A stretch of DNA of 55,645 nucleotides, the filler included, from Platydemus manokwari (taxonomy: Eukaryota): NCBI GenBank assembly GCA_037951405.1. It is 5 parts of 5 records of this genome, joined end to end, with 100 filler letters (N's around TTAATTAATTAA, not from the genome) between each part and the next. Parts side by side here need not be neighbours in the genome. Positions count along the whole stretch, not along the records: positions 32,913 to 42,518 come from JBBMOY011226654.1; 4 more parts are not named here. One strand, 5' to 3'. Positions within the stretch are counted from its first letter, which is position 1; each line of letters begins with the position of its first letter. The notes under the pieces are model-generated. The model saw nothing but the letters and a program-made list of their open reading frames with translations, was not told where the DNA came from and did no database searches. Both the position numbers and the translations under genes were made by a program. This document shows, piece after piece, positions 33,720 to 41,501 of the stretch.

Positions 33720-34146
33720 AATTCATTTCGATAAAGCATTTTCCACTAACTTAATCTTTTAATTTATACGTTATTGGTTTAGCTTTGCAAACGTCTTTAA
33801 TAACAAATATTTCTTCTGAGTATGTTATTGTATAATGTTTTTCAAATTAATTTTTTACTTAAAAATTCTTATTAGATATAAACTTATAAAAAGCCTTAAA
33901 AAACTATTTAAAATATTTATTTGTTATTCTAGATTCTTTATCAATTCAAATTTATTTAGGAACTCTTTGACCGTCATCAAAATAACTTTCAAATGCTCCA
34001 ACTATACGAATCATATCTTGCGTATAAATCAATAACAACCAAAATATATTTATATCCGTCAGTTGATTTTTTAACATAACAATTAAATCTGAACTAAGAG
34101 TATTTATTTTTCCAAATATTTTAATTCTTGAGCAAAAGGATGCCAA
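33720..34146 (-). pseudogene. Maverick-type RVE integrase remnant
   Basis: SSDLIVM, DGYKYILVVIDLYARY, AFESYFDDGQRVPKxIxID and KHYTITYSEEIFVIKDVCKAKPITYKLKD (matches KGYxxNWSxEIFxI...PxTYxLxD). Confidence 0.8.
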
Positions 34147-34149
34147 TCT

Positions 34150-37100
34150 TGTAGTGAGTCGATTTATATATATTACTCAATTACTAAATCTTAAACTTTT
34201 CAAACAAGGTCACCTCTAGGTGATGACTTTGTTCTACTTAATCTTTGACCAACCACCCAGTATCTAGTAGTAATTATCGACAGATTTAGAAAGTAAGTGA
34301 GCCTCATTGCTTCATCTGGCCAAGACGAAAAGACAATCTTCCAGGTCATTTTGAACTCTTGGATTTGTCGTTTTGGGAAGCCAAGTAGCATTCTATCTGA
34401 TACAGGGAAAAAATTGGAAGCAAATTTATGAGGGAGACGTGTTTAAAATTGGGTATCAAACAAGAATTCAGCTCACCTTATCAGCATCATTCGAATGGGC
34501 TAGCGGAAGGAATCATCAGGAAGATACGAGATATGATAACAGCTACTTTAAAAGGTAAGAGCCTTTAGAAAAGTTGGCCTGAATTTTTACCAAGGATAAA
34601 TTTCTGCATTAACGACACATCAATCAACAACGAAGTTTTCGCCTTTCGAGATATTATACAGGCAGAAGATCAATGTTTATACAGATATAAGTCACAAGAA
34701 CCAAACTCGAGATAAGATTACAGCAGAAACTAGAGAAAACCCTAAAGTGGCAGCCGACATAATGTTTAAAGGAGACTGGACAAAAAGAACACGGATAAAT
34801 TCGAAGTAATATTCGATGCTGTACAGGACGCCAGATATTTTTCAACAATAAATTTGGCGAACGGTTATCATCAAGTTGAATTGGAGAAAGAAGCAAAAGA
34901 AAAAACAGAATTTAGCACTAGATACGGACGGTTTCGGTTTAATCGAAAGCCTTTTGGATTATGTTCAACACGTGCTTCTTTTCAGAAACTTATGAATGTG
35001 ATATTGAAGACTGAAAATTGGACAAACCGTGTAATCTATCTAAATTTTCTGATAATTGGAAGAGCAGTCAATGAATACACTGAAAGATTGGAAAGAGCTG
35101 TGAATCGAATCGATGATTCTGGGTTGAAATTTAAGTATTTGGGATACGTGATTGACGAAAACCGCATACGAAAAGATGAAGACAAGATTAAGGTAATAAA
35201 AAATTGTTTAAAATGTCAATATGTCAAGGAACCAAAGGGATTTCTGGGATTATGTGGTTATTATAGGCGGTTTATGAATGATTTTACTGGTATTACCATA
35301 CCACTACCAATTATTGAAGAGAAAGAGTAAATTTAAGTGAAACAATTTAGCAACTGCATCTTTTCTCAAATTAAAAACACCATTAATTTCACCACCAGTA
35401 CTAAGTTTGACATGCAAATAAAGGAAATATGTTTTGGATACTGACGCACCTTTTGGTGCTTTAGGAGTCATTCTTTCTCAAATACAAAACATAAAGAATA
35501 TTGCATTAAGAATAGGGATAAAAGCTCAGCATAAATATTCTATAACAAGAAAAGAGTTGCTAGCCTTTTATGTGTTTGTTAAAAAGTTTAAACACTATCT
35601 ATGTGGTAAGAAATTTATTGTCAGAACTGATCATGTAGCTCTGAAATGATTGCTGAATTGGATATTCACAAATACATCACAATATTGTGTATGAAATACA
35701 GAGCTAGAAATATTTGGAATTGATATAAAATATAGGAATTGGAAACAACACATCAATGCAGATGCGATATCACAATGTCAACATTGTGAACAATGCTCTA
35801 TAAAGCATCAATACCCACAAAAAAGATGTAATATAAAGGTGGACTGTGACAAAAGCGATGTATGGTGTAACGAAGATGAGAGCGTTTTGTGACGAGTGGA
35901 ACAAAACAAGTTTTTAGATCAGAATAAAGATGAAGAATTGAAACGGTGATAAATCCAATTCTCAACGGAAATGCCACACATTTATCAAAAGTTCCTTGTT
36001 ACAAAAATATTTGGAAAAAGAAGGAGTACTTGAGAGTTAGAGGTGATGCATTATAATTTAAGAAAAATGGAATTTATCGGTATATAGTAACTTAATGATT
36101 CATGAAAAATCAGGACATGTCGGAATAGCGAAAACTGCAGAAATCTTTGAAAACGAATTTTATTGACCGGGCTGGAGAAAAGATATTCACAAATACGAAC
36201 ATTCGTGTATTGAATCCACATCAGCTAAGAAAATCGATGAAAGAAATAGAGCGAAATTGCAATCAATAATTACAAATAAGCCTTTCGAGATTGTTGGTAT
36301 CAATATTGCAGGGTCACATCCTTAAACGAAGCAAAGAAACCAATTTATACTAGATATCATAGATTATTTTCTAAATATGTTTCGCTTATTCTATTAAAGC
36401 ATATCACTGCAGAAAATGTAGATTTGGCATTACGGAAAGAGTCAATAAGCAAATTTGTAAGATCCAGAATTCATACACTCGACCAACGGAATAAATTTTT
36501 AATCGACATTAATTTCTAAGTTATGCGTTAGTATGGAAATAAAGAGAACATTTTCTTCCCAGTATTATCCACAAAAAACAAAAATCTATTTAAAACAATG
36601 ATCAACTGGGTAGCCGTGATAACTCACGACTCATAACATAGATTCTCTCTTGCAATTGAACCTGGCTACGTCCAGTAGTTGATATCCACAGTCAAATGAG
36701 CTAATTCAGAGAATTTTTTAAACCATGAAAAGCATGATTATAACATCATTGAGGAATCACTCATACTTGGATGATGTAATAACATATGTTGAATATGGAT
36801 TACGGATGTCACCTCACAAATCTGTGAAGTATTCGCCATTTGAAGTTCTTTACGATAGAAAACCACGGTTGTTTATTAATGAGGCAAGGCCATATAAAAG
36901 GAAAACTATAGAAGAGTTTATGAATCAACATAGGAAAATTTTTGAAGAAGTACAAAATGGTAACAAGAACCTCGTTGTGAAGCAAGCAGAATACTATAAC
37001 CAAGAGATATATTCCCACAAACTATCAGTTGGTGATATAGTGATGGTTGAAAATCCGTTTTACAAACCTTTTGGTAAAAGATTTCTAGACTCATTAAAGA

Positions 37101-37478
37101 TTTTAGAGAAAATAAATGCATCGATTTAAAGGCTTCATAGTCAGAAATTGAATAAAATTATTCAAAGGAAATATAATCAAGTAAAGAAAATTGGAAGTAG
37201 AGATAATATCGCAAATGATGATGGAGGAAGAGACAATGATACGAATATCGCAACCATGAACAAGTGGCAAAGCATTCTCAACAGAAATGATGACTTAAAA
37301 ATGGAGATATTACCAAACACTGGCAAATAAATGAAGAAGTCTACCAGATATAAACAGCCAGAAAGGTACATGAATTACCAAGACGCAAGCTTTTATGAAG
37401 ACAGATGTAATATATATATATGTTTAAATACCATAATATTTGTATACGTTTTGAATTAATAAGTATCAATATTCTACA
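34150..37478 (+). mobile_element. Degenerate Ty3/Gypsy LTR retrotransposon
   Basis: RT (LANGYHQV..KTEF..RFNRKPFGL..FQKLMN; KYLG; GFLGLCGYYRRF), RNase H (DTDA..GVILSQ..YSITRKELLA..FIVRTDH), integrase (GHVGIAKT; PFEIVGI; YSPFEVLY); purine tract followed by TGTAA at 37406; ends TGTA...TACA flanked by AATCT/ATTCT. Confidence 0.9.
36574..36682. mobile_element. 109-bp insertion with an 8-bp target duplication inside the Gypsy integrase
   Basis: TATCCACA at 36566-36573 and 36683-36690; removing the insert restores FSSQYYPQSNELIQR (cf. SPYHPQSNGLxER). Confidence 0.75.
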
Positions 37479-37484
37479 ATTCTG

Positions 37485-39539: not shown

Positions 39540-40109
39540 TTTATTTTCTAATTTTATATTATTTTCCTTAATTTTCAAAATTTATTCACATAAATCTTTA
39601 ATAATTTCTTTATCAATTCATACACTATCCTACAAAGCTTTTACTTGAAATAAATATCATTTATCAATGACATATTTAATCGCTTCACAGACCTCTCTAT
39701 AAATCCACTTTTACTACTTAATCCAATATGAAGTGATTCTCCAATAATATAATTTATTATTGTTAATAAACTAACTCCAATTCCACAATATTTAGTAATT
39801 GTAGGTAAAAACCCCAATAACCAAAAGAGTTAATAAAATAGTACGCCCAATTAATACGCCCAAAAATTAACTAAATATTAAAACTGAATATTTTAACACA
39901 TCATCACCTTTAGACCATTTATTTTTTAAATTTATTATAGTGACTTAATAATTCTTCTATACCTCTTTTTTCATTCTAAGATCGTTAATGTTTACCGTTA
40001 ATGTATTATTTTCATAACCTAGATAAGATGGACCCATTTTCTGTGAGTCTAGTGGAGCACTTGAATTATTAAAATTATCAAGATTAGGGTAAAGTTTTTG
40101 ATCATCCAT
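39540..40109 (-). pseudogene. Maverick/adintovirus membrane protein (gasderminX-like) remnant
   Basis: MDDQKLYPNL...SSAP N-terminus, basic coiled coil, two hydrophobic segments (FLGVLIG..ILLTLLVIG; GIGVSLLTIINYII) and C-terminal QVKALxDSVxIDKE. Confidence 0.55.
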
Positions 40110-40989
40110 TTTATTTATTTAAATATAAAATTTAATGATACAAAAAATCGGGATAATTTTTTGATAATAAATTTATGATGCTCCATTTTTGTTGATTAAA
40201 TAAATGATTATCATGATTATCTTTGATGGTCTATTAGGAAATATATTCCCAATAAATAGCTTAATTTCATATAGTTTATCTAATTCTTTAAGTAATACAT
40301 TATTTAAGTAAATAAAATATTTTTCATTTTTTTGATTTTTTATTAAATTCATAAATTAATAATCTGGGTTTTGTAGACATGAATTCCCAGTTCTTTTTCA
40401 AATAAAGGAAAGAACATTTATCAACACATATATGTTCTGTTCCATGATTATTATTCAAGAAAATATTTTTATCTTTCGTACCAATACAATTTCTTTTCCC
40501 AATAACATATTGCACAAGAACTACAAAACTAAAAGTCACATATTTATGTACAAAATTTAAATTCATAAGTGAAATTACCATCAAACGCAATATTATTTTT
40601 CTCGTTATTATAAAATCCCAGAAACAATACCACTGATATACATAACTTTTTTTACCAAACCTAAGATATTTTTCAAAGTTTTTAGGTGGATTATCATTAA
40701 AAATAAGATCTTTATTTCTTTAACAATTAATATTATTTACCTCCTTAAAACAAACATATTTTTGCTCCATTAACCGATCCTCAAAATAGACATTAGTTGG
40801 ATTTCTTAGATCGGTGATAGCTTTCGTCATTTTTTTAAATATCATTACTATTTTTAAGAAGATTATTCAATTTTTCTTCTAAATCCCTCCAGATTGAATA
40901 CCAAATTTCATCATCTCTAAAAATTCCGTTTCTGTTTTCCCTCTATAATCTTAAAATTTTTAAGTTTTTCAGAGGTTAATTTGATTTCT

Positions 40990-41300
40990 ATTTCTTTTAT
41001 TTTTTATTATCATTTATCATTGAAATTATTGATTTACATAAAGAATCAATTTTATCAACGTTTTATTTAATTTTCCCTTTTGTATTTTAAGATGGCTTTA
41101 TCAAGTTCAATTTTAACATTATATGTTGGCTATTTTATTACTAAAAACGTGTGTAATTTCATTAAATTTATACTCAACAACACTTTTTTATATATTTTCA
41201 CTTATATCAGGAATTTCTATAGAATCAGATGGTATTTTACATAATTTATTCTCATATTCAAAAGAATTATTATTATTGTGAAATATTTTATATGAATTAA
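40990..41300 (-). pseudogene. Minor capsid (penton-like) protein remnant
   Basis: SYKIFHNNNNSFEYENKLCKIPSDSIEIPDISENI (cf. NNxFxY..IPxGxYEIxDI) and NVDKIDSLCKSIISMIN. Confidence 0.55.
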
Positions 41301-41404
41301 ATTTTTATTTAATTCAGAACAATTTTTAATTCACATTTAATTTAAATTTTATTCAGATGTAATTCTAATTTTATAAAAAATCACATTAATATATAATTTA
41401 GAAT

Positions 41405-41501
41405 TATTTGTTTAAATATTTGTATATAAATAGATTTGTGGTGTCTTGAATTTTCAGTTCGTTTTTAATGTGTGGAATTTAAAATAGTAGCGGCTAACAA
41501 T
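41405..41501 (+). repeat. Dispersed repeat, copy C, at the right edge of the Maverick fossil
   Basis: ATTTGTTTAAATATTTGT...GGTGTCTTGAATTTTCAGTTCG...AAAATAGTAGCGGCTAACAAT, homologous to copies A and B. Confidence 0.65.

Follow-up and report, generated by a model that had tools for sequence, protein, structure and literature searches.

Degraded remnants of a Maverick (Polinton) virus in the genome of Platydemus manokwari

The window analyzed here, a stretch of 55,645 nucleotides joined from five parts of the Platydemus manokwari genome, contains a locus of Maverick (Polinton) and Gypsy remnants that lies inside a single assembled piece (32913-42518), with N-linkers on either side. Intact relatives were compared with the window by frameshift-aware alignment, with 40-60 shuffles of each as a control. 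Remnants of integrase (-), ATPase (+), capsid (+), PolB (-) and membrane protein (-) stood at z 12-60 over the shuffles, and a Trp-repeat remnant (+) matched phrog_3532, which confirms these genes and strands as originally predicted; the MCP, ATPase and PolB fragments all match Maverick proteins. No gene in the relic is intact, and its Maverick remnants carry 28 stops and 22 frameshifts across 1,033 aligned codons. A Pfam search of the complete six-frame translation of 33001-41802, cut into 30 pieces with X in place of stops, returned Gypsy domains only and none of the Maverick genes. The part outside Gypsy measures about 4,470 bp, in line with the 4.5 kb first claimed. The locus is a genuine Maverick virus relic, and the earlier view of a capsid-encoding, adintovirus-like lineage reduced through deletions is supported.

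At the left lies the RVE integrase remnant (33704..34164, minus strand; HMM iE 4e-9), which scores z 22-26 against three Maverick integrases. It aligns over 153 of 438 residues at 46% to L002 (z 22), with 6 stops and 3 frameshifts. It keeps its C-terminal end and a portion of the catalytic core, but about 110 residues are gone internally and the N-terminal PLA2-like/zinc-finger third is absent; rve and PF08398 are both carried by the relative L006. To the right of intervening Gypsy DNA, about 4.5 units of a Trp-containing 23-residue repeat occupy 37492..37810 (+), with a DNA period of 69-70 nt and matches to phrog_3532 at E 4e-13 and 3.5e-12. Because the motif is absent from the ORFs of 81 related loci, the link of this repeat to the Maverick rests on its position.

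The packaging ATPase, of A32 type, follows at 37863..38318 (+; E 5e-53, 66% to P0001; relatives match PF04665). Its alignment covers residues 3-155 of 255 (67%, z 60), so that the N-terminal 60% is kept and the last 100 residues are lost. Scanned against IMG/VR, the window ATPase found no locus and the alignment found 1 distant one. Directly adjoining the ATPase break is the C-terminal 60% of a double-jelly-roll major capsid protein (about 38300/38322..39099, +; HMM iE 1.5e-22), aligned over 265 of 444 residues at 43% (z 57); its relatives carry PF21738.

The protein-primed PolB fragment (39097..39446, -), found by alignment to L048 and L074, consists of one block (39446-39109, 112 residues) that ends at motif B and scores z 31-38 against L048 and z 5.5 against L074; the exonuclease region is missing, as are those of motifs A and C. 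Two internal deletions seen against L048 were gone against L074 and were rejected as a template artefact. The L048 template was itself identified as PolB through Atlas features (0.97). The piece does not match the PF03175-positive PolBs of L028/L056; it matches the type that hmmscan leaves outside PF03175 (L048, L044, L074), and the L044 PolB retrieved no match when its sequence was searched against the PDB. The fragment may correspond to the divergent PolB of the Beta class of animal "adintoviruses", which has an N-terminal OTU domain (PMC8502044); the N-terminal region is absent from the relic, and the Beta label, taken from the description in that paper rather than from a tree, is tentative.

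Next to PolB lies a nearly full-length membrane-protein gene (39502..40109, -; start and end read from frames). Its aligned part (39971-39561) covers 126 of 147 residues of L048:5313-5753 at 35% (z 11.6, 7 stops); the match was obtained with one of three templates, the other two giving z 0.7 and 1.3. Beyond it is a further nearly full-length gene (40399..41175, -), overlooked in the original prediction. This orphan gene matched P0073 (E 3e-8) and P0074 (E 2e-7), found among 1.84 billion, with alignments of 225 residues at 42% (z 30) and 129 residues at 45% (z 34). Its product probably combines a coiled-coil N-terminal part with a beta-rich C-terminal domain. The gene occupies the slot of a fibre-like gene in the relative L048. 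It had no match among the ORFs of the 81 related loci, and no family or fold was found for it (predicted fold pLDDT 36.8); Atlas matches were all under 0.9, with low recognition, and the similarity of P0073 to a "minor tail protein" in PHROG (E 7e-4) was set aside as probably reflecting the coiled coil.

For the predicted minor capsid gene there is a weak candidate remnant of about 45 codons on the minus strand (41178..41304). We regard it as a probable penton: it scores z 4.4-5.8 with 3 of 12 templates, 3.1 with one and <2 with eight, reaches E 0.018 at 2.6% probability by hhalign, and is the best of 186 bins in the whole window, narrowly (31.8 against 30.5 for the next). The template family is itself a penton family, with a fold match to the mavirus penton (E 8e-11). 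Neither 4 templates nor a profile of 13 members picked up an adenain/Ulp1-type cysteine protease, in agreement with the original prediction, which had recognised none; the family of these templates, lacking a Pfam match, is presumably the protease by position. We read the protease as lost from the locus through deletion, and the locus as a relic rather than an intact member. Altogether four genes conserved in relatives have no trace: those for the protease and for the pX-like core, coiled-coil and pV-like proteins.

The Gypsy DNA, predicted as one insertion, is indeed present, and consists of pieces of two different elements, fused by a large deletion like those in the Maverick DNA. Piece A (34205..34737, +; left edge about 34205 by eye) holds the integrase core only, with an rve match and 35% identity to P0085 residues 779-938. 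Piece B (34803..37312, +; Pfam RVT_1, RT_RNaseH and Integrase_H2C2) runs from mid-RT to the end of pol and aligns to P0085 residues 240-1063 at 76%, with 11 stops, 5 frameshifts and a 117-nt insert (36566-36682); it lacks a 5' LTR, gag and protease. The integrases of the two pieces show no DNA match. A possible 3' LTR stub (TG...CA, 37406..37478, +) was read by eye and is unproven; no partner was found beyond a 26-nt match at 33045-33069, and we consider the LTR pair 33045/37424 doubtful, since it is 26 nt only and the left flank has a depth of 70-95. An IMG/VR scan with the Gypsy RT found no locus. Per 100 codons, the Maverick remnants carry more stops than the Gypsy pieces (2.7 vs 1.4, p 0.05) and more frameshifts (2.1 vs 0.6, p 0.01), a gap that we do not trust for dating, because more distant templates had to serve for the Maverick. 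Where the template was as close as 67%, in the ATPase, decay resembles that of Gypsy (2 stops and 0 frameshifts in 152).

Between the integrase and the remaining genes lies this 3.3 kb of Gypsy DNA, with neither a 5' LTR nor a target-site duplication that can be tested, and the integrase, perhaps with the Trp repeat, might have come from another Maverick copy or element, joined by nesting and deletion in a repeat-rich region. Best templates that change from gene to gene (L002, L006, L048, L011), a Trp motif foreign to the ORFs of the 81 related loci and a many-copied family are all compatible with such a patchwork. We nevertheless think it improbable. No gene is present twice, and order and strand agree with single relatives (L048, L056, L058): penton-(protease)-fibre slot-membrane is the order of L048, and an integrase divergent from the ATPase is the arrangement of L056/L058. 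Mosaic best matches are, moreover, usual in Polintons, in which polymerases are exchanged, according to 10.1101/2023.08.22.554363. All the Maverick pieces, the integrase included, would probably derive from one copy.

Contigs of the one public run that contains this locus bear on how common the family is. A total of 11,074 align to the stretch, 8,919 of them under 95% alike; summed contig depth, which is not equal to copy number, is 566-34,515 over the relic and 10-19 over host exons. One such exon, a single-copy reference with a VWD domain (41934..42236, -; PF00094 E 1.5e-4), flanks the relic and lies in an 840-nt contig match without differences. Of the eight difference rows listed for the Maverick span, five occur in 41-70 contigs apiece; in 3 of those 5 the window's own letter has a depth of 12-17. 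Six contigs match PolB and then continue past 39110 unlike the window, and, of the 15 joints listed (out of 582), 4 fall within the Maverick span, all of them deletions absent from the window copy. These observations come from the smaller part of the contig alignments, the remainder comprising 567 joints, 2,533 loose ends and 11,960 pieces. They show many diverged copies, other copies with other deletions, and letters private to this one.

An assembler of short reads could have jumped between copies of a high-copy repeat and so produced the compact layout: the assembly is fragmented, in pieces of 6-13 kb, the public run contains only 58% of sampled words and no contig spans the whole stretch. 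We judge this very improbable, since private letters at single-copy depth indicate an old, distinct copy, well resolved by assemblers, and a near-identical contig (37536-37910; 2 differences, depth 12) bridges the Trp repeat/ATPase junction.

The genes are kept to widely differing degrees, with PolB at 9% and the membrane gene at 86% as the extremes. The retention of a sample of each gene had been taken as special. It does not appear so: four conserved genes are traceless, and in a random-deletion simulation at least 5 of 6 core genes were retained in 4-23% of runs. This places the relic on the gene-rich side. With random deletion reaching that number, and with many copies in the genome to choose among, a gene-sampling mechanism need not be invoked. 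The original prediction left the choice between a fossil and a once-mobile derivative open. The fossil is favored by the single-copy-depth letters and junction, the lack of inverted repeats and the similar loss from Gypsy. The locus might instead be one decayed daughter of a non-autonomous master, a deletion derivative that was mobilized in trans by intact Mavericks and copied, which we hold unlikely. Non-autonomous Polinton derivatives exist; the gene richness lies in the upper tail of the simulation, and a contig of single-copy depth (39190-39541; depth 9.8, 90% alike, with 15 other letters and 21 gap letters) seems to run across the membrane/PolB junction, perhaps as a second copy sharing it. 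A mobile derivative, however, would need its ends rather than gene samples, and between the flanks only short AT-rich chance matches were found in place of inverted repeats or intact termini. Depth along the relic also varies about 60-fold, the Trp/ATPase junction is bridged, among the rows listed, at depth 12 only, and the capsid/PolB junction is not common to the six contigs.

Our preferred reading, which we consider likely, is therefore a dead copy of a high-copy Maverick family, eroded after insertion; the relic is one among many decayed copies and ordinary of its kind. A capsid-encoding Maverick would have integrated into the germline as one of many family copies, near 15-16 kb long if the relative L044 is a guide. 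In the probable order of events, the copy would have died after insertion and accumulated stops and frameshifts in neutral decay, and Gypsy elements would have landed inside it. Roughly eight large deletions would have removed about 70% of the Maverick, with both ends, most of PolB, the protease and three further conserved genes among the losses. The two Gypsy pieces would have been fused in the same way. With no intact gene, the remainder would have no function. Since the relic's ends cannot be placed, a target-site duplication is not locatable. Against this reading count the gene richness of the relic, the contig that may share the membrane/PolB junction, and piece B, in which 2.5 kb have escaped large deletions, more than in any of the Maverick gene blocks.

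The relic shares with Mavericks (Polintoviricetes) an RVE integrase, an A32/FtsK-type ATPase, a double-jelly-roll capsid, a protein-primed PolB and a probable penton at one locus. Unlike intact Mavericks, it has every gene broken, shows no protease, inverted repeats or target-site duplication, and spans 4.5 kb against about 16 kb in L044. Its closest sequences are P0001 for the ATPase (67%), L006 for the capsid (43%), P0073/P0074 for the orphan (42-45%) and L048 for PolB and the membrane gene, with the integrase at 43-46%; P0001, P0073 and P0074 are ENA proteins, and L006, L001/L002 and L048 are JGI-collection loci, metagenomic Maverick contigs. The reading frames of all of these, unlike those of the relic, are intact. 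Gene order differs among the 81 related loci. Vertebrate Maverick fossils are likewise endogenous, with stops and frameshifts, as in the human chromosome 7 relic (PMC8502044); PMC8097293 describes 96% of vertebrate Mavericks as defective, with hundreds of such copies in some genomes. The present relic differs in its AT-rich, intron-poor, apparently invertebrate-like genome, as judged from the window's genes, and in having lost about 70% of its length.

As most likely read, the relic itself matters little, since degraded Mavericks are the norm, but it contributes a further host, whose apparently large family of decayed Mavericks is useful for measuring deletion rates. A gene-sampling mini-Maverick is not described in the paper listings searched, which does not prove absence. 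It is unlikely that the relic descends from a shortened, gene-bearing mini-Maverick, multiplied in trans after the manner of a defective-interfering genome, in an animal whose Maverick load is very large. Such a lineage would carry a fibre-type or receptor-binding gene not described before (41175-40399) and a Trp-repeat gene that it had acquired. Shared junctions and termini, if real, would be evidence that defective genomes of these never-isolated animal viruses spread in the germline with the aid of a helper. In the left flank, a poxvirus transcription-factor-like candidate was discarded at z 2.8, where it shared fifth place in 138 bins. The orphan accessory gene represents a family with two other members known in the library searched.

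Pfam searches of six-frame translations of the relic, a decayed Maverick (Polinton) copy with nested Gypsy sequence, found Gypsy domains only and no Maverick genes. Relatives of the ATPase frame numbered 72 among 118 candidates, nearly all of them PF04665 (best E 5e-53, 66% identity), and their alignment was used to retrieve 81 loci, of which 80 are metagenomic and one is viral. When 599 ORFs of these related loci were searched against the window, they matched pieces of integrase, ATPase, capsid and PolB. All four were confirmed by family profiles, with nothing below E 0.05 in the reversed-window control, upholding the original prediction of a Maverick-like relic with these genes. 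Independent evidence named the integrase (rve and PF08398), capsid (PF21738), PolB (Atlas features, 0.97) and penton families, the last through a model (pLDDT 86.6) that matches the mavirus penton (E 8e-11). The defining Polinton genes in PMC11161782 are pPolB, RVE integrase, protease and ATPase. Animal adintoviruses are the subject of PMC8502044, which also reports a divergent class of PolB and germline relics in a degraded state, and polymerase exchange among Polintons is shown in 10.1101/2023.08.22.554363; the locus is a further member of the already known Maverick relics.

Gene retention was measured by frameshift-aware alignment against shuffled controls. The relic keeps 153 of 438 integrase residues (35%), 152 of 255 in the ATPase (60%), 265 of 444 in the capsid (60%), 112 of about 1,280 in PolB (9%) and 126 of 147 in the membrane protein (86%), bearing out the membrane remnant proposed before. 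The proposed Trp repeat is also real, though not seen in the ORFs of relatives. The proposed minor capsid (penton) piece is weak (about 45 of 257 residues; z >4 for 3 of 12 templates; hhalign E 0.018; its bin narrowly top of 186). Its position agrees with the related intact locus L048, whose order is penton, protease, fibre-like gene, membrane gene. It is the weakest gene claim in the relic. As first reported, no protease remnant was found: with eight shuffles each, none of 4 protease, 3 pX-like, 2 coiled-coil and 2 pV-like templates rose clearly above shuffles; these family names are in part provisional. Elsewhere in the window, a short ORF at 4661-4963 (+) took the protease profile's top score (34.7 versus 25.8) but by eye has no His-Trp motif; the score is probably chance or another repeat. 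It shares a W-x-P-P-G motif with the short ORF at 10397-10756 (+), and neither has a Pfam match.

The gene list first given, confirmed apart from the weak penton piece, missed an orphan gene at 41175-40399 (-). A search with one minus-strand frame against 1.84 billion representatives gave two matches only, the unnamed singletons P0073 and P0074, which align across the gene at 42-45% identity (z 30-34); an open frame at 40324-40719 overlaps the region. The gene is among the best preserved in the relic, better kept than the core genes, and is a Maverick accessory gene to which Pfam, Atlas and folding assigned no identity. In L048 a fibre-like gene occupies this slot, and assigning the orphan a fibre role would be guesswork based on position. 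The roughly 290 nt separating the orphan and membrane genes (40110-40398, -), which hold a short ORF-like stretch, matched no ORF of relatives, yet other copies cover them well.

Gypsy DNA is present as predicted, but as two fused elements rather than one, revealed by the intact Pol P0085 (76% identical). The first piece is the integrase core only (34258-34737, 35% identical to P0085); the second starts at Pol residue 240 and reaches the Pol end. The 5' LTR, gag and protease of Gypsy have left nothing at the locus. Two truncated, fused pieces imply that large deletions hit retrotransposons too; against using Gypsy as a deletion control, the second piece runs uninterrupted for 2.5 kb. Relative to P0085 it carries a 117-nt insert (36566-36682), which several other copies skip (contig joints near 36558-36683). 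The left flank (33045-33069) and a possible LTR stub (37424-37449) share a 26-nt direct match (92%), which could be coincidental or the trace of an old LTR.

The original prediction noted that a sample of each gene was kept; our simulation does not support that this is special. Random deletions were simulated on the near-complete locus L044, shrinking it from 16.4 kb to 4.4 kb. In 4-23% of the 1,500 runs made at each setting, five or more of six core genes still had 110 nt or more, and protease was the commonest loss (89 of 251 five-gene outcomes). The locus was chosen for gene richness; it is gene-rich yet unremarkable among many copies.

We aligned contigs of one public run containing the locus at 80% likeness. 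Over Gypsy and Maverick together, 11,074 contigs aligned, 8,919 of them below 95% alike; summed depth per bin over the relic ranged from 566 to 34,515, which is not a copy number. A host exon had an 840-nt contig match without differences at depth 12. Of the eight difference rows listed in the Maverick span, five are each carried by 41-70 contigs. At three of these five the window's own letter had depth 12-17, so the relic copy has private mutations (the other two had 42 and 140). Of 582 joints, 15 are listed, 4 of them within the Maverick span and the other 11 within Gypsy; each occurs in 1-4 contigs, implying that other copies bear different deletions. Six contigs match PolB and extend past the capsid/PolB junction, by eye continuing PolB as in L048.

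The gene identities, breaks, decay, large diverged family and lack of termini are established at the locus, and we think it probable that this is a dead copy of a high-copy Maverick family, eroded after insertion. The element would have integrated through its own integrase, this copy would have died, and Gypsy insertions and then neutral loss of sequence would have followed, leaving a remnant likely without function. In vertebrates, PMC8097293 gives 96% of copies as defective, with up to 287 per genome. Against our reading stands one contig (depth 9.8) that seems to span the membrane/PolB junction; over 353 nt it has 15 other letters and 21 gap letters, and it may be a second copy sharing the junction, or an allele. 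A mobile deletion derivative, as the original prediction allowed, seems improbable. A patchwork of different copies is similarly doubtful. The Trp repeat/ATPase junction is bridged by a contig with 2 differences (depth 12), and we regard an assembly artefact as very improbable.

The window itself is a chain of assembled pieces artificially joined at N-runs, so sequences on either side are not necessarily adjacent in the genome; the relic lies within one piece, 32913-42518. Each junction (at 13289, 23797, 32813 and 42519) has a 12-nt linker with stops in all frames, placed between two runs of 44 N. Host genes near the relic include N-myristoyltransferase (PF01233) and a VWD-domain exon. Long helical-repeat ORFs and an ORF that we take to be a ribosomal protein point to an animal host with an AT-rich, intron-poor genome. 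The left flank (32914-33700) consists of low-copy repeat sequence with a summed depth of 70-95 (one 366-nt contig about 80% alike), and no gene was recognised in it.

Among the relatives, the near-complete L044 encodes a poxvirus intermediate transcription factor homolog (3898-5103; PF05718, E 2e-20), and its PolB (39-3884) contains an endonuclease VII-like insert. In L001, L002 and L006 a PLA2-like domain is fused to the integrase N-terminus (PF08398 and rve in L006); in L056 and L058 it is apparently an ORF of its own, lying upstream.
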